A stretch of DNA of 32,000 bases from Candidatus Baldrarchaeota archaeon (lineage in GTDB: Archaea > Asgardarchaeota > Baldrarchaeia > Baldrarchaeales > DXJG01), in assembly GCA_019056805.1 (NCBI GenBank), contig DXJG01000002.1:30517-62516 (forward strand), read 5' to 3'. Of this stretch, positions 14,515 through 32,000 are shown piece by piece. Every line of letters begins with the position of its first letter. Positions within the stretch are counted from its first letter, which is position 1. The notes below the pieces were generated by a model. The model did no database searches. It was given only the letters and a program-made list of their open reading frames with translations, and was not told the origin of the DNA. The position numbers were made by a program, and so were the translations under genes.

Positions 14515-15702
14515 TTGTCAAAAGATGTATTCGAAGAAGAACTAGGAAGACCTTCAATCTTTAAAGATGAATCAAAACTTTCAATAGACTACGTACCTCC
14601 CTCGCTTCCACACAGAGAAAAAGAACTTAGAACACTAGTTAGGACTTTTAAAATTTTACTTGAAAAACCTGGAAGCAAAAGTTGTAAGATACTAATTTCT
14701 GGAAGCGTAGGTACAGGAAAAACGGCTTTAGCGAAACTTTTTGGAAAATTGATATCTAACGAAGCACAACAACGCGGTGTTAACCTCCATTATATTCACA
14801 TAAATTGTAGACGAGATAAAACAGAATTTTTAGTCCTAAAAAGAATCGTACATTATTTTAATCCCAGTTTTCCAACAAGGGGTTTTTCTCCAGAGGAACT
14901 TCTTTTCGCCCTACAAAAAACTTTAGATAATCATGAAGCATTTCTCCTAATAACTCTAGATGAACTTGATTTTTATATTAAAAAAAGTGGACCCGAACTA
15001 CTATATGACCTAACAAGACTTTACGAAGAAAAATTGAATGCTACACAAAGAATTTCGTTGATCGGTATAGCGAAAGATATCTCTTGGATGAGTTTAATAG
15101 ATTCTAGTACACTAAGCACGCTACAACAAAATGTTTTATATTTAGCTAGATACACTGCCTCGCAATTAAGAGACATTTTAGAAATGAGAGTAAAAGAAGC
15201 ATTTTATGAAGGATGTGTGTCAGAAGATGCTATTAACTTAATTGCTGATATTGCAGCAGAATGGGGAGACGCTAGATACTCTCTGGAACTTCTTTGGAGA
15301 GCAGGAAAATATGCTGAGGCAGAAGGGGAGTTCAGAGTTTTACCTGAACATGTCAGACAGGCAAATGCTGAAATTCATCCAGTTATAAGAAAAGAAATTT
15401 TACTTGACCTACCCCAACATCATAGACTTCTTCTTCTAGCTTTAGCAAGAAAATTAAAGAAAAACGAAAAAGCGTATGTAACTATGGGTGAAATCGAAGA
15501 TCTCTATCACATCGTATGCGAAGAATATGGGGAAAAACCACGAGGACACACCCAAATATGGAACTATATTCATGATCTAGAAAGCTGTGGAATTATAAAT
15601 ATAAAGCCTTCAGGACCGGGGCTTCGTGGGAAAACAACACTCATAAGTTTACCAGATGTTCCTGCAACACTCTTAGAAAAGGAACTAATGTCCTTACTTT
15701 GA
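14515..15702 (+). CDS. cdc6: Orc1/Cdc6 replication initiator
   Basis: SIDYVPPSLPHRE, Walker A GSVGTGKT, HINCR, Walker B LDELD, GDARYSLELL, C-terminal winged helix. Confidence 0.95.
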   Translation: MSKDVFEEELGRPSIFKDESKLSIDYVPPSLPHREKELRTLVRTFKILLEKPGSKSCKILISGSVGTGKTALAKLFGKLISNEAQQRGVNLHYIHINCRRDKTEFLVLKRIVHYFNPSFPTRGFSPEELLFALQKTLDNHEAFLLITLDELDFYIKKSGPELLYDLTRLYEEKLNATQRISLIGIAKDISWMSLIDSSTLSTLQQNVLYLARYTASQLRDILEMRVKEAFYEGCVSEDAINLIADIAAEWGDARYSLELLWRAGKYAEAEGEFRVLPEHVRQANAEIHPVIRKEILLDLPQHHRLLLLALARKLKKNEKAYVTMGEIEDLYHIVCEEYGEKPRGHTQIWNYIHDLESCGIINIKPSGPGLRGKTTLISLPDVPATLLEKELMSLL

Positions 15703-24276: not shown

Positions 24277-25686
24277 CTAAAATAATAAAATCAATGTTTC
24301 AAGCAAATTTAAAACTTGTTTACCTTTTTCTGTTAATTGATAGTATTTTCTTCTTCCTTTCCATACGCTCTTTATAAGATTTTTATCTTCCAATTCATTT
24401 AGGTGCTGATAAACAGCCTGAATAGTTATATCTTTTCCCAAGGCCTTCCATATTTCATATCCATACGATACTCCTATGTCAAGAAGTTTTAAGACTTGAA
24501 GCTTCACACTTACATTTTTTCTGAAACCAATTCTCTTACCTCTACGGATAATTGCCTCTAATACATATGGAGCCTTTAATCCACTAGCTGTTATTAAACA
24601 AACAACCCTTTCATCGTTACCGAGAGTTCCTTCATTTAACAATTTTGAAAGAGCAGCAATGGTAGAGGCACTTGCTGGCTCAGCAAATAATCCTTCAGTT
24701 CTAGCAAGAAGCTTTTCCGCTGACATAATTTCTTCATCGGAAACTGCTACAGCTAAACCATTTGATTCTCTAATAGCTTTCAAAGCAAGGAAGCTATTAG
24801 CAGGATTTCTAACTAATATAGCTAATGCTTGCGTACTAGCTTCTTTCTCATAATATTTGTCGTTTTTTTCATTGAAAAAGGCTTTAACTATTGGAGAACA
24901 TCCTTCCGCCTGAACACCAATCATGCGAGGCAACTCTTTTACGATGCCCAATTTCTTTAATTCAGTAAACCCTTTCCAAATAGAATAAATTGTTCCTCCA
25001 CTCCCCATCGGGACTAAGACCCAGTCAGGGACGTCTATTTCTTCAACTATTTCAAAAGATATAGTTTTTTGTCCCTCAAGAGTTAAAGAGTTATGTTCCG
25101 CAGTTGCATTATAAATTTTCCCTTCTCTAAGAATTTTTTCGATAAAAATTAAAGAATCATCTAATGTTTCACCCTTTTCAATTACTTTCGCATTGTAAAT
25201 GAACATTTGGGCGAGTTTTCCAATATGAGTGGCCTTAGGTACAATAATTGTTGCATAAATATGTGCTTTTGCACAGTAAGCAGCAATTGATGCACCAAGA
25301 TTACCATTAGATGCACAAACTATTTTATTATAACCGTAATCTAGAGCTTGAGAAACCATTAAAGCAGCAGCTCTGTCCCTAAAAGAATTTGTAGGGTTTA
25401 ACGTTTCATCTTTAAGAAACAAAAATTTCATTCCTACTTTCTTTGCTAAGTCCTCTGCAACTTTAAGCGGGGTTTTCCCTTCCCCTAAAGTTACTCTTTT
25501 TTGTATTTTAGGAAAAACCTTTTCATATCTCCAAATTCCACGATCTTTAAGATTTTTAAAATTGAAATCAATTTTTTCATATTCGTAAATGTATTCTAAT
25601 AACATACCACATTCTCTACATAGATAATTAACTCCTATTGGATCAAAGACACGTCCACAACTCGGACATTTCAAAGTATACATCAT
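24277..25686 (-). CDS. Threonine-synthase-like fold-type II PLP protein with N-terminal Zn ribbon, Lys-to-Arg at the PLP site and C-terminal PadR wHTH
   Basis: CPSC..CREC; LGEGKTP; NPTNSFRDR; ASNGN; EGQKT; EPASA; C-terminal YGYEIW...VYQHLNELE..NLI..RRKYYQLTEKG. ATG 25686 (GTGGAG RBS) is preferred over the ORF-track start 25761. Confidence 0.88.
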   Translation of the reverse strand: MMYTLKCPSCGRVFDPIGVNYLCRECGMLLEYIYEYEKIDFNFKNLKDRGIWRYEKVFPKIQKRVTLGEGKTPLKVAEDLAKKVGMKFLFLKDETLNPTNSFRDRAAALMVSQALDYGYNKIVCASNGNLGASIAAYCAKAHIYATIIVPKATHIGKLAQMFIYNAKVIEKGETLDDSLIFIEKILREGKIYNATAEHNSLTLEGQKTISFEIVEEIDVPDWVLVPMGSGGTIYSIWKGFTELKKLGIVKELPRMIGVQAEGCSPIVKAFFNEKNDKYYEKEASTQALAILVRNPANSFLALKAIRESNGLAVAVSDEEIMSAEKLLARTEGLFAEPASASTIAALSKLLNEGTLGNDERVVCLITASGLKAPYVLEAIIRRGKRIGFRKNVSVKLQVLKLLDIGVSYGYEIWKALGKDITIQAVYQHLNELEDKNLIKSVWKGRRKYYQLTEKGKQVLNLLETLILLF

Positions 25687-25776
25687 AAATGCTTCAACTC
25701 CACGAAAACTATTAATTGAAATAATCCCACATTTTTTAAGTCTATTTGTTATAGGATTCATTTAGGTGAACATTTA

Positions 25777-26328
25777 ATGTCGATCTTTCCCGACAATGAA
25801 GACGCCGAGTTAAAAAGACTTTCCTTCAAATTCAAGAATATTAATGTAAAAGTTCGAATACTCGAAGACATACCACAACTATTTTTAGAAGGGAAGAGTA
25901 TAGGGCCCCTGAAAAAAGATGATATCTTAGAACTAAGGCTTTGGCAAGCTATACCGCTAATAGAAGAAGGAAAAGCTAAACTAGAAGAGTTTCCAATTAA
26001 AGTATCATATACTGATATTCATAAATTTGTATGGAAGGAGACGCAGACACCTGAAATTCAAGAATTAAAAAATATTTCATATATAGGGCTTAAACAACGG
26101 GAAAAGTTAATGAAAATGTCAAGTAATGACATCGAGAAGTTTAAAACAGCGTTAAGAGATCTTATCACTGTAAGAACGAGAAAAATCATTAAATTATCTA
26201 TGCAAGATTCAGAATTAATATCGTCTCTTAAACCATTATTACCAGAAGAAAAATTACTTTACGAAAATCTCTCAAAAATATTATCTATTTGGAAACGAAG
26301 GATGTTAGAAGGAGAAGAATATGACTAG
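25777..26328 (+). CDS. gins23: GINS complex subunit Gins23 (B-A domain order)
   Basis: N-terminal beta-rich B domain (VKVRILEDIP...GPLKKDDILELRLWQA), helical C-terminal A domain (R.RKII..S; LLPEE); overlaps the mcm start. Confidence 0.8.
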   Translation: MSIFPDNEDAELKRLSFKFKNINVKVRILEDIPQLFLEGKSIGPLKKDDILELRLWQAIPLIEEGKAKLEEFPIKVSYTDIHKFVWKETQTPEIQELKNISYIGLKQREKLMKMSSNDIEKFKTALRDLITVRTRKIIKLSMQDSELISSLKPLLPEEKLLYENLSKILSIWKRRMLEGEEYD

Positions 26329-29300
26329 CATGAAAGTTGAAGGAATATTTGACCCCATCGGAAGATTTGAAGATTTTATTAAAAGTTATAGAACCGAAGA
26401 GGGTATTTACAAATATCGTAGCATGCTTCAAAAATTATCATTAACGGGAAACAAATCACTTGTAATAGATTTTGATGATTTATTAAGATTCGACCCAGAA
26501 CTTGCAAAAAGAACACTTGACGATCCAGAAGATTACATTGAAGCAGCTTCAAAAGCAATAAAAAATGTCATGGTCATAGAGGATCCTGATTACGCTCAAA
26601 AAATAGAAAAATTCCATCCAAGATTCAAAAACATCCCTAAAAAAATATCACTAAGACAAATAAGATCTCACCATATAGGCCAACTCGTAGCTATAGATGG
26701 TATAATAACAAGAGCAAGCGAGGTTAAACCACAACTAATTGAAGCTGTTTTTGAATGCCAACGATGCCATGAAAAAATGGTTATCCCCCAAGAAGAGGGA
26801 AAATATGTACCACCTGTTCAATGTGTAAATCCAACATGCAGAAGAAAAGGCCCATTTAAACTAATAGTTGAAGAATCAAAGTTCATAGACTGGCAAAAAA
26901 TACGGGTACAAGAAAGACCTGAAGATCTACCACCAGGTCAACTCCCTCGCTTCATCGATGCATATCTTAAAGACGATTTAGTAGATATTGCCAGACCAGG
27001 AGACCGCGTAACAGTAATAGGCATATTAAAAACCTCACCAGAATTTGGACAACGAAGAGGAAAACTAACAACATTCAGAGTATTCATAGAAACAAACTAC
27101 GTAGAACTAACCGAGAAAGAAGCAGAAAGACTAGAAATCACACCAGAAGAAGAACAAAAAATACTAGAACTAGCAAAAGACCAATGGATACACAAAAAAA
27201 TAATACGATCCATCGCACCCTCAATATACGGCTACGACGACATAAAAGAAGCAATAGCACTCCTACTATTCGGAGGAGTACCCAAAACACTCCCAGACGG
27301 AATGAGAATCAGAGGAGAACCAAACATACTCCTAGTAGGAGACCCAGGAACAGCAAAAAGTCAACTACTAAGATACGTCGCAAGAATAGCCCCAAGAGGA
27401 ATCTACACATCCGGAAAAGGATCCACCGCAGCAGGACTCACAGCAGCAGTAATAAGAGACCCAGAAACAGGAGGAATGAGCCTAGAAGCAGGAGCACTAG
27501 TACTCTCCGATCGCGGCGTCGCGTGTTTACATGAGGAGTCAAAGGTTTTAATCGATAATAGAATAGTTAACATAGGAAGTCTTTTCGATGAGCAACGAAA
27601 ATTTAAGGCTCGATCTGGAAACGAAGAAGTTGAAATATGCGAATTAAATACAAATACGGTTTCTATCGACTCTAAGCTTAAAACAATATCTTCAAGATCT
27701 TTATTAATAAGAAGAAAGAAGTATAAAGGCGAGATACTCGAAATAACACTAGCTTCTGGATTTAAAGTGAAAGTTACTCCCGATCATAAACTTCTAGACG
27801 GAAATACATTGGAATGGAGAGATGCTAAAGAATTTAAGAAAGGCGATTTTGTAATTGCTCCTCTAAAGCTTCCTGAGAATAAGGAAAACATATATCTTCT
27901 TGACATTATCCCAGACAATTGGCTCGTCATCCTCGGAAAAGAAGAAAAGATGGAACTCAAAAGAAAAGTACTTGCTATTTATAAAAGTTTGAGCAAATTT
28001 AACAAAAAATACGGTATAACAAAAGATTTTCTTTCTGGTAGAAGTCAAATAAAGGTCGGTAAACTGAGAAAAATATTAAAAGACCTAGGATGCTATGAGG
28101 AATGGAAAAATAAATGCCTTAAATATGGTAGAAAAGCTTCAGGAGAAATGTTAAAAGTTAATAAGATAACTCCGGAGCTAGCATATTTTCTTGGATTTAT
28201 TTACGGCGATGGCGATGTTAAAATTTCGCACAGAAGATCAAGAATATCAATAACACAATCGTTGAAAAACAGAAAACAAATAGAACGTCTTAAGAAGATG
28301 TTTCAAAGTTTTTCACAAAGGAAACTTGGAGAGTATAGAAGAAAAAGTGTAAGTTTAATAAGAGGGCAAAGAGTAGAAAGTGAAAACATCATTTTATACG
28401 CTAACTCTAATTTATTAGCATACATTTACAGCTATGTAGTCGGAGAAGGGCTGAAAAATCTTTTGAAACTGCCTGATGAAGCTTTAAAGGCATTTATCGC
28501 AGGCTGCTTAGATTCAGATGGATGTATTTCAGTCAAGAGAGGGAGAAAATCGGATAAAATCTATGAAACCGTACACATAGAGTTTCAACTATCAAAGAAT
28601 GAAGAGGAAAACAAAGCGTTTATGCTTGCCCTAAGACGATTTGATTGCTTCGCGAAACTTATAAGAGATAAGAGGATAAATAAAATTATAATAACCGGAA
28701 GAGAAGATGTTAGTCGACTTCTAAACGCTATTAAAAAATACAGTGTCAAAATTAAAACTATCCCTACTAGAAAACATTTAGTCTCTTCTCTTAGCGATAA
28801 ACTTCCAAACACTCCAGTTGCAAAAATAAGTACCCACATAATATCCTCCGTAAATAAATCTATCTTGCTTAAAAAAGGTATATGGAGTACTCTCTACGCC
28901 TATAAAAATAAAAGATATCAACCCTCCAGACAACAACTTCTAAAAATCAAAAATGAAATTTTCGACTTCTTGGATGAAAAGCTACGAAATCAAATAGAAC
29001 TACTAACATCCCGAGACTACTTTCTAGACAAGATAGTTGAAATAAAAACAGAGAAATACTCAGGATACGTCTACGATCTTTACGTTCCAAAATACCATAA
29101 CTTTGTATGTGACGGAATTATAGTGCATAATTGCATCGACGAATTTGACAAAATGAACCCGCAAGACAGGGTAGCCATCCATGAAGCGATGGAGCAGCAG
29201 TCTTATCATCCATCCTTTGAAATTACTTTGGCAGATGGAGCCAAGGTTAAAATCGGGGATTTCGTCGATGCCCTTTTCGAACAATTTCCAGATAGAAAAA

Positions 29301-31567
29301 TAGATGGAATAGAATGCGAAATTCTTCAAATATCAGATCTAAATATTGAAATTCTTACCACGGATTTTGATAAAATATTTAAAACAAAAATTAACAGAGT
29401 TAGCAGACATAAAGCACCAAGTCAATTTGTAAGAATACTATATTCAAATGGTAGAGAGATACTTGTAACTCCAGAACATCCCATATTCGTTTTTGAAAAT
29501 GGAGAAATTAAAACTATAAGTGCAGATAAATTAAAAGTTGGGTCCTTTGTTCCGGCAGTTGAAAAAATCGAGTTTAAGGGGAGTTACAAACTAGATACCG
29601 ATGCGGGTAATGGAAGAAAAAAGGTTATACTCCCGGAAGTAATACAAGTTCCAATTGCTAGATTTTTGGGCTACTATGCGGCTGAAGGTTATTCCTATAA
29701 TGGGGCCACTGCAGAAATTGGATTGAGTAATACAAATCAAGATATAATTTTAAACATGAAATCTGTTGTGGAAGAAGCTTTCGGAATAAGTCCAATTGAC
29801 TATGTTGATGTAAATAGAACACTACGTATCGTATCTAAGTCTCTTTACAACTATATGTCTAAAAACTTTCCAGAATTAATGAAAAGAAGTACTGATAAAC
29901 GAATTCCACAAAAAATATTTGTAGCAGGTAAAAGGGAGAGAATAGAGTTTTTAAAGACAGCCTTTGAAGGAGATGGATCCATTGAAAGTGAAGCAATTGC
30001 TTATTCAACCTCTTCAAAAGGTCTTGCCGAAGACTACCAGGACTTGCTTTTAACTCTTGGAATACATTCTCGAATATGCAAAGATGTTTATGATTTACCA
30101 AAAGGGCAATTAAAACGATACCGTTACAAAGTCTACATAACTGGAGATAGCCTGAAAAAATTTGTAGACATTGTCATTCCTGAGCTTAAGTCACACGAAA
30201 AACTCAAAAAACTTGTTGAGAGGAGTGAAAGAATTAACAGAAAGCACGATGTTTTACCACCGTACGTTGGAACGATGATAATAAAATGTCTAAAAAAGCT
30301 TGGCATGCCTTATAACGGTTACTTTAACGAACATATAAACGGAAATTACGGAATAACAAGAGAAGTTGTGAATAGATATTTGAATATCATCGAAAGCAAG
30401 ATCAAAGAACTTGAAAAAGATATCAGAAATATAAATGATCTGCGAAAACTAAGGCAAACAATTGGTTATTCTCAAGCTAAAGTCGCAAAACTGATTAATG
30501 TAGCAAGAAGTACAATTGACTACATGGAAAGAGGCGGTTACGACTCAGAGAAAAGAAATAAACTGATACACGAGTTTAAAACGGCAGTATTAAAGGAAAT
30601 TGAGGAAACAAAAGAAATAGTCAATAAGATCAAAAAGTTAAAGAAATTTAGATGGCTAAGAGTAAAAAACGTAGAAATTGTAGATAACTGTGGAGAATTA
30701 AAAACAGAATGGGTCTATGATGTTACAGTGGAGCCAACAAGGAATTTCATAAGTCATGGACTTATACTTCACAATACAATTAGTATTGCCAAGGCTGGTA
30801 TTATTGCTACTCTTAATGCGCGTACGGCTATTTTGGCTGCTGCTAATCCTAAGCTTGGTAGGTATGATCCTTATAGGCCTCCGGTGGATAATATAAATCT
30901 TCCACCGACAATTTTGTCTCGTTTTGATTTGATTTTTATTTTGACGGATAGGCCTAGGGTGGAGGTAGATAAGCAGGTGGCTGAGCATATTCTTGCTTTG
31001 CACCAGATGAGGACTGTGGAGCCGCCGATACCTCCTGATCTTCTTCGAAAATATATTGCATATGCTAGGAAAAATGTTCATCCAGTGTTAACTCCTGAAG
31101 CTGCACAAAAAATTGAGCAGTTCTATTTGGAGCTCAGAAGTGTAGGTGAGGCTCCAACGTCTCCTGTACCGATAACAGCAAGGCAGTTAGAAGCTTTGAT
31201 TAGATTAGCTGAGGCTCATGCAAGGATGGCTCTCAGAGATAAGGTAACTGTCGAGGATGCTGAGGAAGCAATACGTCTCATGAAGCTGTCCTTGCAACAA
31301 GTAGGAATTGATAGTGAGACAGGTCAACTTGATATAGACCTAATAATGACAGGACACAGTAAATCGCAGAGAGATAAGATGGAAAAAATATTAGATTTAA
31401 TAGACGAATTAGGAGAAGAACCAGACAAAGCTGTTCCAATATCTAAACTCATTGAAAGAGCAAGCATAGAAAACATTGATGAGGATTTCGTTAAAAGAGC
31501 TGTAGAACGAATGAAAAAGGAAGGCATACTCTTCGAACCAAAGCCTGGCTATGTCAAAAAAGCTTAA
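26321..31567 (+). CDS. mcm: MCM replicative helicase precursor (1748 aa) with two inteins; spliced product 687 aa
   Basis: Zn finger CQRC..CVNPTC, Walker A GDPGTAKS, STAAGLTAAV, Walker B CIDEFDKM, AAANP, arginine finger LSRFDL, C-terminal wHTH. Confidence 0.97.
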   Translation: MTSMKVEGIFDPIGRFEDFIKSYRTEEGIYKYRSMLQKLSLTGNKSLVIDFDDLLRFDPELAKRTLDDPEDYIEAASKAIKNVMVIEDPDYAQKIEKFHPRFKNIPKKISLRQIRSHHIGQLVAIDGIITRASEVKPQLIEAVFECQRCHEKMVIPQEEGKYVPPVQCVNPTCRRKGPFKLIVEESKFIDWQKIRVQERPEDLPPGQLPRFIDAYLKDDLVDIARPGDRVTVIGILKTSPEFGQRRGKLTTFRVFIETNYVELTEKEAERLEITPEEEQKILELAKDQWIHKKIIRSIAPSIYGYDDIKEAIALLLFGGVPKTLPDGMRIRGEPNILLVGDPGTAKSQLLRYVARIAPRGIYTSGKGSTAAGLTAAVIRDPETGGMSLEAGALVLSDRGVACLHEESKVLIDNRIVNIGSLFDEQRKFKARSGNEEVEICELNTNTVSIDSKLKTISSRSLLIRRKKYKGEILEITLASGFKVKVTPDHKLLDGNTLEWRDAKEFKKGDFVIAPLKLPENKENIYLLDIIPDNWLVILGKEEKMELKRKVLAIYKSLSKFNKKYGITKDFLSGRSQIKVGKLRKILKDLGCYEEWKNKCLKYGRKASGEMLKVNKITPELAYFLGFIYGDGDVKISHRRSRISITQSLKNRKQIERLKKMFQSFSQRKLGEYRRKSVSLIRGQRVESENIILYANSNLLAYIYSYVVGEGLKNLLKLPDEALKAFIAGCLDSDGCISVKRGRKSDKIYETVHIEFQLSKNEEENKAFMLALRRFDCFAKLIRDKRINKIIITGREDVSRLLNAIKKYSVKIKTIPTRKHLVSSLSDKLPNTPVAKISTHIISSVNKSILLKKGIWSTLYAYKNKRYQPSRQQLLKIKNEIFDFLDEKLRNQIELLTSRDYFLDKIVEIKTEKYSGYVYDLYVPKYHNFVCDGIIVHNCIDEFDKMNPQDRVAIHEAMEQQSYHPSFEITLADGAKVKIGDFVDALFEQFPDRKIDGIECEILQISDLNIEILTTDFDKIFKTKINRVSRHKAPSQFVRILYSNGREILVTPEHPIFVFENGEIKTISADKLKVGSFVPAVEKIEFKGSYKLDTDAGNGRKKVILPEVIQVPIARFLGYYAAEGYSYNGATAEIGLSNTNQDIILNMKSVVEEAFGISPIDYVDVNRTLRIVSKSLYNYMSKNFPELMKRSTDKRIPQKIFVAGKRERIEFLKTAFEGDGSIESEAIAYSTSSKGLAEDYQDLLLTLGIHSRICKDVYDLPKGQLKRYRYKVYITGDSLKKFVDIVIPELKSHEKLKKLVERSERINRKHDVLPPYVGTMIIKCLKKLGMPYNGYFNEHINGNYGITREVVNRYLNIIESKIKELEKDIRNINDLRKLRQTIGYSQAKVAKLINVARSTIDYMERGGYDSEKRNKLIHEFKTAVLKEIEETKEIVNKIKKLKKFRWLRVKNVEIVDNCGELKTEWVYDVTVEPTRNFISHGLILHNTISIAKAGIIATLNARTAILAAANPKLGRYDPYRPPVDNINLPPTILSRFDLIFILTDRPRVEVDKQVAEHILALHQMRTVEPPIPPDLLRKYIAYARKNVHPVLTPEAAQKIEQFYLELRSVGEAPTSPVPITARQLEALIRLAEAHARMALRDKVTVEDAEEAIRLMKLSLQQVGIDSETGQLDIDLIMTGHSKSQRDKMEKILDLIDELGEEPDKAVPISKLIERASIENIDEDFVKRAVERMKKEGILFEPKPGYVKKA
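27524..29131 (+). mobile_element. MCM intein 1 (536 aa) with LAGLIDADG homing endonuclease
   Basis: GVA|CLHEES...VTPDH...IIVHN|CIDEFD; Cys1, His-Asn end, Cys+1; LAGLIDADG blocks YFLGFIYGDG and FIAGCLDSDG. Confidence 0.93.
29201..30775 (+). mobile_element. MCM intein 2 (525 aa) with LAGLIDADG homing endonuclease and internal HTH
   Basis: MEQQ|SYHPSFEI...VTPEHP...LILHN|TISIAKAG; Ser1, His-Asn end, Thr+1; blocks FLGYYAAEG and FLKTAFEGDG. Confidence 0.93.
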
Positions 31568-31586: not shown

Positions 31587-32000
31587 ATTAAAATAAAAGA
31601 ACTGAATATACCTCAAAAAGTGAAAAAAATATTTCTTTCACAGGGAATAACAAGTTTATATCCCCCACAAGAAGAAGCTATCAAAAGGGGCGCTCTTAAC
31701 CATGAAAACCTAGTTTTAGCTATACCAACAGCATCTGGGAAAACTCTTGTAGCAGAACTAGCAATGCTAAAATCGATAATTGAAGAGGGAGGTAAAGCCC
31801 TATATTTAGTGCCCTTAAGAGCTTTGGCCAACGAAAAGTATGATGAATTTAAAAAATACGAACAAATAGGAGTAAAAGTAGCAGTCTCTACAGGCGATTA
31901 TGATTCATCAGATAAATGGCTCGAAAACTATGATATTATAATTTGCTCCGTTGACTATAACGAACCTATAGTTATCAAGGAAAACGGGGTAGTAAAAAGT
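31587..32000 (+). CDS. hel308: Hel308/Ski2-like SF2 DNA helicase, 3'-truncated by the window edge; absent from the ORF track
   Basis: Frame reads (M)KIKELNIPQKVKKIFLSQGITSLYPPQEEAI...LAIPTASGKTLVAE...YLVPLRALANEK...STGDYD; Q motif, motif I and Ia. Probable ATT start after in-frame TAG 31581-31583. Confidence 0.9.
   Translation, partial: MKIKELNIPQKVKKIFLSQGITSLYPPQEEAIKRGALNHENLVLAIPTASGKTLVAELAMLKSIIEEGGKALYLVPLRALANEKYDEFKKYEQIGVKVAVSTGDYDSSDKWLENYDIIICSVDYNEPIVIKENGVVKS
31947..32000 (+). mobile_element. N-terminal start of a probable intein in Hel308
   Basis: After DIIIC the expected TxEK of motif Ib is replaced by SVDYNEPIVIKENGVVKS, an intein block A pattern; only 18 codons are visible. 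Confidence 0.7.

Follow-up and report, generated by a model that had tools for sequence, protein, structure and literature searches.

The stretch of DNA considered here, referred to below as the window, comprises 32,000 nucleotides of a Candidatus Baldrarchaeota archaeon (assembly GCA_019056805.1, contig DXJG01000002.1, positions 30,517 to 62,516 of the forward strand) and contains an mcm gene interrupted by two inteins (Table 1). The genome holding the window is designated G000 and the contig C9; G001 and G003 are other assemblies of the same genus. The extein pieces of mcm match the Pfam families MCM_N, MCM_OB, MCM P-loop, MCM_lid, and MCM_WH_arc, the last being an archaeal winged helix. A preliminary description of this DNA, drawn from the letters alone, reported that synonymous codon choice in the mcm exteins is skewed in mirror image about the intein pair, with codons ending in A or C (A/C) before the inteins and codons ending in G or T (G/T) after them. 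This skew, its distribution across the genome and among other lineages, and its possible origin in recombination at the intein homing sites are the subject of the present analysis.

Table 1. Features of the mcm locus, in window coordinates (position 1 is the first letter of the window; a slash marks an intein junction).
Feature	Position	Strand	Description and basis
GINS gene (Sld5-like)	25777..26328	+	3' end overlaps the mcm start; context unskewed; Pfam Sld5, 8.7e-07
mcm	26321..31567	+	1748 codons, split by two inteins; open reading frame list
Outer 5' arm	26621..26989	+	Weaker arm; third positions ~65-85% A/C (13-17 of 20 in 20-codon bins)
5' arm	26990..27523	+	N-extein; third positions 97% A/C; end of the OB-fold and Walker A part of the AAA+ core
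Intein 1	27524..29131	+	536 amino acids; site MCM-c; DRGVA/C ... IVHN/C; LAGLIDADG; alignment with intein-free MCM
Middle extein	29132..29200	+	23 codons, 69 nucleotides; Walker B CIDEFDKMNPQDRVAIHEAMEQQ; polarity-switch zone
Intein 2	29201..30775	+	525 amino acids; site MCM-d; MEQQ/S ... ILHN/T; LAGLIDADG; alignment with intein-free MCM
3' arm	30776..31045	+	C-extein; third positions ~91-93% G/T
Outer 3' arm, decaying	31046..31300	+	G/T from ~75% down to 55%; A/C counts of 5, 7, 9, 7, 9 in 20-codon bins, then 11-14
Hel308-like helicase gene, start	31620..32000	+	Continues beyond the window to C9:65243; Pfam DEAD/ResIII

Intein boundaries were set by alignment to the intein-free MCM of G004, a genome of the same order, and canonical junction residues are found at both inteins (DRGVA/CLHEES...IIVHN/CIDEF and AMEQQ/SYHPSF...LILHN/TISIA). 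Intein 1 matches the Pfam families Intein_splicing (2e-27) and LAGLIDADG_3, and intein 2 matches the same two families (5e-21 and 4e-20, respectively). Both inserts are LAGLIDADG inteins, combining in-frame insertion with a splicing domain and a predicted endonuclease domain. MCM has four homing sites, at which inteins are frequently gained, lost, and transferred with co-conversion of their flanks (PMC10643990). In the congeners intein 1 occupies site b rather than site c, and intein 2 of G003 is a mini-intein, which implies intein turnover.

The mirror-image skew is nearly saturated on both sides of the intein pair. A recount reproduced the earlier figures exactly: 167 of the 173 codons at 26990-27508 end in A or C (the exceptions being TTT, GAG, TGG, ATG, AGT, and ATG) and 77 of the 83 codons at 30779-31027 end in G or T, with T amounting to 44 of 360 nucleotides at 27121-27480 versus 83 of 240 at 30781-31020. 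Third positions consist of A (0.70), C (0.26), G (0.02), and T (0.02) in the 5' arm, and of T (0.56), G (0.35), A (0.07), and C (0.02) in the 3' arm, which also emerges from the genome scan described below as a segment of 85 codons at 0.93 (C9:61309-61561). The change of polarity falls, as had been proposed, inside the middle extein, whose third positions read CCCATCAGCGACGACCTAGGGGG, with A/C in 9 of the first 12 codons and G/T in 6 of the last 7. Outward the bias decays on both sides over some hundreds of codons; the downstream fading of G/T noted earlier reaches background level by ~31300, and the rise in A/C along the outer 5' arm is also present in G003 and G001. The intein bodies are mixed, with third-position A/C of 0.58 in intein 1 and 0.56 in intein 2, and the 5' end of mcm is mixed as well, again in agreement with the preliminary description.

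Within mcm only synonymous sites carry the bias. Neither the first nor the second codon position is shifted directionally relative to the unskewed gene of G004, and the protein sequence of the arms is 97-100% identical among congeners and collinear with that of the intein-free relative. G001 and G003 have both arms, despite their differing inteins, and have them at the same codons; an assembly chimera, which had been named as a possible artifact, is therefore rejected. The intein-free mcm of G004 has no arms.

Pfam scans of G000 located seven further inteins, encoded in genes for Hel308, reverse gyrase, a Lhr-like helicase (two inteins), a radical-SAM protein, and two PolB proteins. Each junction was given a switch score, D, on extein-only tracks: the fraction of A/C among the 40 codons preceding it, less the corresponding fraction among the 40 that follow. 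The null distribution of D, taken from 81,967 random in-gene positions, has a standard deviation of 0.115, and in it D >= 0.3 has a probability of 0.005 and D >= 0.55 one of 6e-5. D is 0.75 at Lhr-A, 0.60 at Lhr-B and at mcm-2, 0.55 at mcm-1, 0.40 in the radical-SAM gene, 0.32 in reverse gyrase, and 0.30 in PolB; it is 0.03 in PolB2 and 0.10 at the small intein of the Hel308-like gene (C9:62565-63389), where the switch is weak and no LAGLIDADG match is found. An A/C-then-G/T switch with a null tail of at most 0.5% is present at seven of the nine junctions and a negative D at none, and at Lhr-A and Lhr-B the switch lies within a few codons of the junction. The centring of the skew on the intein zone, for which a check at other intein sites had been proposed, is borne out by this common sign and significant size. 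The link between skew switch and inteins is real, though the phenomenon is broader than inteins.

The association extends to other lineages. Fifty-five scorable mcm alleles of named genomes were compared by D, and all seven alleles with D >= 0.75 contain inteins: those of the congener AUK032 (0.80), Promethearchaeota DZ2S.148 (0.82), DZ2M.269 (0.87), and H2S.129 (0.75), Hermodarchaeota YT2_032 (0.93), Atabeyarchaeia-1 (0.78), and Thorarchaeota TM2M.154 (0.83). Atabeyarchaeia-1, which has two inteins, scores 0.78 versus 0.17 in Atabeyarchaeia-2, which has none, and the Baldr genus scores 0.8-0.9 versus -0.03 in Baldrarchaeum yapensis, a relative in the same order. Comparison of intein-bearing with intein-free alleles, another check that had been suggested, confines extreme D to the former, with weak or near-zero values in intein-free sisters. 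Inteins are not sufficient, since many intein-bearing mcm genes are unskewed, with D near zero in those of Odin, Hel, and Borr, of TACK archaea (Thermoprotei and Thermofilum), and of a halobacterium. The keto/amino axis (G and T versus A and C) is constant across lineages in which the G+C content of third positions (GC3) ranges from 0.29 to 0.71, and the GC3 of the arms equals the lineage's own level; in G014 (DZ2M.269) the 5' arm has C 0.82 and A 0.18, and the 3' arm G 0.72 and T 0.21. G014 and G015 share a neutral zone at codons ~340-440, the stretch holding homing sites a-d (sites as in PMC10643990), and in G000 A/C extends up to site c, so that the neutral zone matches the intein sites in use. 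Ten further intein genes of Atabeyarchaeia-1 include six in which a G/T-rich 3' extein follows straight after the intein and two with a clear A/C-rich 5' extein.

Scanning the 1.92-Mb assembly for A/C or G/T runs in every codon phase yielded 145 codon-periodic segments, 43.6 kb in total, and chance is rejected as their cause because shuffling within each codon phase yields none. In 60-codon windows the standard deviation of the A/C count is 8.1 versus a binomial value that we put at ~4. The earlier statement that nothing comparable occurs in other genes is thus correct inside the window and fails across the genome. The genes concerned, with strands set by Pfam, are unrelated and include the NurA-HerA-Mre11-Rad50 operon, sugar-nucleotide and glycan genes, and genes for ribosomal protein S3Ae, PGK, methylmalonyl-CoA mutase, and a CoA-transferase. 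The longest A/C block, C18:26941-33467, covers the entire NurA-HerA-Mre11-Rad50 end-resection operon. Amino-acid composition in the blocks differs from that of the genome, which may partly reflect the proteins in which blocks happen to fall, and enrichment of blocks within 10 kb of contig ends is modest (28.6% versus 16.2%). More than 100 equally strong blocks lie at intein-free sites, among them tRNA flanks, the NurA-HerA-Mre11-Rad50 operon, and glycan gene clusters. Strong blocks occurring regardless of inteins had been put forward as grounds for abandoning the intein connection; such blocks are indeed common, and the intein link nevertheless holds. Inteins are therefore one class of centre and not the cause of the whole phenomenon.

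Several observations place the skew in the DNA strand rather than in codon choice. Neighbouring genes on opposite strands have a common DNA-strand polarity (for example at C9:546-551 kb and C10:49-53 kb, with strands confirmed by Pfam), from which it follows that the skew belongs to the strand. Non-coding DNA beside two tRNA genes is skewed by 85-91%, as strongly as third positions, and the first codon positions of Leu and Arg obey the same A/C versus G/T rule. Codon or translational selection is ruled out as a general cause by the shared polarity of opposite-strand genes and by the skewed non-coding DNA. In coding sense the blocks based on open reading frames number 77 A/C and 48 G/T, and both polarities can share one gene, which rules out transcription-coupled asymmetry. 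Outside the blocks a milder third-position strand skew is found, with contigs at 0.44-0.60, and most blocks follow it.

Transfer RNA genes form a second class of centre in G000, with a weaker form of the mirror skew. At 28 of 29 tRNA genes called by ARAGORN the left 200 nucleotides are richer in A/C than the right 200, with a mean flank D of 0.17 (null mean 0, standard deviation 0.066) and D >= 0.2 at ten genes. The flank skew is near nil in Atabeyarchaeia-1 (mean D 0.02) and in an Odin genome (0.05), which leaves it unsupported as a lineage-wide companion of the mcm skew. The archaeal RNase P RNA gene at C1:210-601 is directly followed by a G/T block (C1:662-1289) with the same right-hand polarity as at tRNA genes. 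Other centres are larger. On C8 an A/C arm, an unskewed 15-kb glycosyltransferase cluster, and a G/T arm follow one another; a similar layout is seen on C17 at 272-297 kb. A large switch near 43.2 kb on C18 lies between divergently oriented genes, as does a switch near 10.3 kb on C9, and Rfam detects no RNA gene at the C18 switch. Introns are present in 22 of 31 ARAGORN tRNA calls genome-wide (for example C9:10334-10435 and C17:70458-70559), and two intron-bearing tRNAs were detected by Rfam only. Calls with anticodon tta (C9:551-662 and C17:14832-14926) and tca (C9:448264-448366) may represent mis-set introns or suppressor-like tRNAs.

The arms are maintained over evolutionary time. Four-fold sites outside the arms are near saturation between G000 and G003, yet the arms are kept in both genomes, and inside them the two differ by A<->C changes; the force responsible is therefore persistent, and neither a single event nor an import. 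In the NurA-Rad50 operon the third-position A/C fraction is ~0.90 in G000 versus ~0.73 in two congeners, and the differences are directional transitions (A/G 144 versus 35, C/T 142 versus 72). Equilibrium ratios derived from composition indicate that A>G and C>T are each raised about tenfold over background on the strand rich in keto bases.

On balance, and with modest confidence, the arms are read as the strand-polar footprint of recombinational repair that has started repeatedly at the mcm intein homing sites. This reading comes closest to one alternative of the preliminary description, in which events set off by the endonuclease leave a scar that is strand-specific and polarized like an origin; that idea survives best of those offered, and for its mechanism we infer every step from the geometry of the standard synthesis-dependent strand annealing model. 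The homing endonuclease would cut an empty site, and each 3' tail would copy the intein from the donor and then run on into the opposite flank. The outward-made strand (plus on the right, minus on the left) would be new and donor-derived, and its partner would be the old recipient strand. If some process favoured the keto bases G and T on the new outward strand, many homing cycles could render the right flank G/T-rich and the left flank A/C-rich on the plus strand, within coding limits that in mcm would leave synonymous sites only. The inteins would be unskewed because they are copied from both sides and recent. After a cut and 5'-to-3' resection, the surviving strand, with its 3' end toward the site, would be the A/C-rich one in both arms. 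Deamination of resected 3' tails is excluded on this ground, since it would make the left flank G/T-rich and the right flank A/C-rich, contrary to observation.

A candidate for the favouring process is the mismatch endonuclease EndoMS/NucS. EndoMS cuts both strands at G/T, G/G, and T/T mismatches and does not cut at A/C, A/A, or C/C (PMC4838380). A donor G or T on the new strand would create a cleavable mismatch, and the duplex would be broken again and copied again from the donor; donor G/T alleles would then always be transmitted, and donor A/C alleles, left uncut, would segregate 50:50. Such a transmission bias would give exactly the observed axis and polarity. The same bias acting at other recombination entry points, such as tRNA genes and the borders of glycan clusters, would explain many of the intein-free blocks. 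A nucS gene is present in G000 (PF01939 match, 1.4e-30, C9:111129-111464) and in G001, G014, G015, G024, and G030, and every other patterned genome of reasonable completeness also has NucS. Among the genomes searched, the intein-bearing ones with no NucS match (G021, G029, G018, and G013) are all unpatterned, these genomes being related and some of them incomplete. Taken alone, the version in which EndoMS/NucS biases conversion is a tentative proposal, and its extension to several Asgard lineages, with an enzyme of this type driving keto-biased conversion and leaving a mirror footprint at every recurrent recombination entry point, is possible but doubtful.

A number of observations weigh against recombinational repair as the source of the arms, or against the part given to EndoMS. 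A moderate switch, with D as high as 0.60, is present in certain mcm alleles that contain no intein. Several NucS-positive, intein-bearing genomes are yet unpatterned (the Odin genomes G005, G016, and G026, and also G028, G007, and G017), so that the enzyme is at best necessary and not sufficient, and the genomes compared for NucS are related and thus not independent samples. EndoMS action, heteroduplex, and recombination are all deduced from geometry and published enzyme specificity. The pattern is its own reverse complement, which makes coding sense and DNA sense inseparable at intein sites alone. Since Atabeyarchaeia-1 has intein-linked skew and lacks the tRNA-linked one, the two may differ in cause. 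For most skewed blocks of G000 neither a break site nor a mobile insert is identified. At the C8 glycan locus conserved flanks around a variable cassette are not demonstrable, as flanks and cassette alike have no DNA match in G001-G003, and that interpretation of the locus was dropped. Finally, four-fold sites in the arms show no between-species identity in excess of composition, and recent homogenization of the arms between species was accordingly rejected.

The same polarity would arise from strand-specific mutation, an unlikely alternative in which the displaced outward-made strand undergoes deamination, turning C into U and A into hypoxanthine (copied as if T and G, respectively), or is synthesized by an error-prone polymerase that leaves G.T mispairs; only the outward-made strand fits. 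Deamination runs in the required amino-to-keto direction, non-coding DNA is hit as strongly as third positions, and differences between species in the NurA-Rad50 operon consist mostly of directional transitions, all of which accord with mutation. Saturation at 93-97%, however, would require the local process to dominate the errors of normal replication at each site, and hence either a very large number of events or an exceptionally high rate of error in each. Adenine deamination is far slower than cytosine deamination, and C>T should dominate, whereas A>G has shifted equally. If G.T mispairs were removed by EndoMS, the errors of the polymerase would make the new strand A/C-rich, the opposite polarity. 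The pattern also occurs in the wetland-soil Atabeyarchaeia (PMC11291895), so heat-driven damage is no general cause.

Less probable still is local bidirectional synthesis or divergent transcription unrelated to homing, at origins, restart sites, or promoters where inteins and tRNA genes merely happen to sit. At origins and divergent promoters in other organisms the skew jumps from A/C to G/T when read from left to right, as it does here. The contig background skew that most blocks follow, the switches between divergent genes on C18 and C9, and the moderate switch in some intein-free mcm alleles are consistent with such a source, as is the bacterial-like cumulative GC skew of Atabeyarchaeia and Freyarchaeia genomes (PMC11291895). 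Against it, the switches coincide to within a few codons with intein junctions in several unrelated genes, track intein presence among sister genomes, and have their centres inside the coding sequence of essential genes, and the preponderance of A/C blocks in coding sense means that the coding strand is not generally G/T-rich. The switch at issue lies within mcm, with an A/C-biased contig background on both sides, and the orc1/cdc6 matches are found elsewhere, at C9:45919 and C6:62340. Around the second of these, at C6:50000-85000, third-position GC skew turns from positive to negative, and this chromosome-scale change of sign runs in the opposite polarity.

Selection on the exteins would account for a bias in mcm that is purely synonymous and, in coding sense, tied to intein junctions, whether through codon choice for translation speed, mRNA pairing between the arms that would loop the intein out, or sequence changes that evade the endonuclease; it is nonetheless very unlikely. 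The opposite compositions of the arms do give a high pairing potential, but their complementarity is unspecific, with z = -0.9 for cofolding and z = -0.4 for duplex formation against within-arm codon shuffles, and the mutually folding arms suggested in the preliminary description thus perform no better than shuffles. The arms, at 250-500 nucleotides or more, far exceed the target of a homing endonuclease, many intein-bearing lineages are unskewed, and the same bias appears in non-coding DNA and in opposite-strand neighbours of common DNA polarity. Import of the arms as co-conversion tracts or otherwise from a strongly strand-skewed donor replicon, such as a unidirectionally replicating virus or plasmid, has in its favour that flank co-conversion during homing is documented (PMC10643990) and that some large blocks lie in accessory regions unmatched in sister genomes, but this suggestion, also made in the preliminary description, is highly improbable given that the arms encode native protein sequence, carry each lineage's own GC content on the same keto/amino axis, abut in both polarities within one gene, and differ between sister species, near saturation, by A<->C changes from which G and T are excluded, which implies upkeep in place.

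Recombinational repair at homing sites has a close precedent in intein and intron homing with co-conversion, described for haloarchaeal MCM-a to MCM-d in the same gene and at the same four insertion sites, where the invaded allele serves as template for repair of a LAGLIDADG double-strand break and several hundred flanking bases are carried along (PMC10643990). Known co-conversion moves donor markers with no reported base or strand preference, whereas here the flanks are near-saturated, mirror-image, and polarized between keto and amino bases. GC-biased gene conversion, known from eukaryotes and some bacteria, favours G and C on both strands alike. It resembles the present case as a fixation bias of heteroduplex repair at hotspots that can saturate synonymous sites and mimic selection, but the axis here is G+T versus A+C, strand-specific and mirror-symmetric; the arms are enriched in A+C or G+T, being dominated by A or T in G000 and by C or G in G014. 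Measures of strand bias are described in PMC3269016. Strand skews are likewise well known, as bacterial GC or keto skew and as a G+T excess on the coding strand of mammalian genes, and amount to a few percent over kilobases to megabases. Those linked to origins and transcription share the polarity about a centre and the amino/keto axis; the skew described here instead reaches 93-97% over 0.1-6 kb, at intein junctions and tRNA genes, regardless of transcription direction, with both polarities inside mcm and opposite-strand genes sharing the DNA-strand skew. Strand-coordinated mutation clusters at breaks and in break-induced replication, found in yeast and cancer genomes, are somatic, sparse, and mostly C>T. 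They too arise from strand-specific damage in DNA left single-stranded while a break is repaired, and the damaged strand changes at the break; in those based on resection, however, the 3' tail is damaged and the polarity is opposite, and here the change is evolutionary, saturated, and as much A>G as C>T. The mismatch preference of EndoMS/NucS lies exactly on the keto/amino axis (PMC4838380, PMC8228993), and the gene is present in G000; the enzyme is known for repair of replication errors, whereas here it is a candidate for a role in local composition. No role of EndoMS/NucS in biased gene conversion or local composition was found in the searchable literature, nor was any description of the pattern in that on archaeal keto skew, strand asymmetry or synonymous change at inteins, NucS conversion bias, or Asgard inteins.

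Inteins are usually viewed as neutral passengers whose insertion is their only mark on the host gene. The flanks of inteins in essential replication genes (MCM, Lhr, PolB, and reverse gyrase) nonetheless carry near-saturated, strand-polar synonymous recoding, and if homing is responsible, intein invasion remodels essential host genes at their synonymous positions. Such a strong non-adaptive force on codon usage could mislead analyses of codon bias, of the ratio of non-synonymous to synonymous substitution (dN/dS), and of horizontal transfer. Should biased heteroduplex repair prove to be the mechanism, the skew would be the first trace in base composition of the archaeal EndoMS/NucS pathway at work in recombination, and skew switches would provide a sequence-only map of recombination start sites and their direction in uncultured archaea, including the Asgard archaea, the closest known relatives of eukaryotes.

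The remainder of the window offers a few minor observations. A match to the C-terminal domain of Orc1/Cdc6 lies at ~15403-15663 (C9:45919-46179), ~11 kb upstream of mcm, and together with the GINS, MCM, and Hel308 genes forms a replication-gene cluster; no skew switch is found at this match. On the minus strand at 24277-25761 is a 494-amino-acid open reading frame in which a PALP pyridoxal-phosphate enzyme domain is apparently fused with a C-terminal PadR-type regulator domain. Two congener genomes are filed under differing phylum names, AUK032 as 'Odinarchaeota' (JAGGSW010000033.1) and Yap30.bin4.67 as 'Baldrarchaeota' (JAEOSG010000015.1); the third positions of their mcm genes are 91-98% identical, and one of the two phylum labels is therefore probably wrong.

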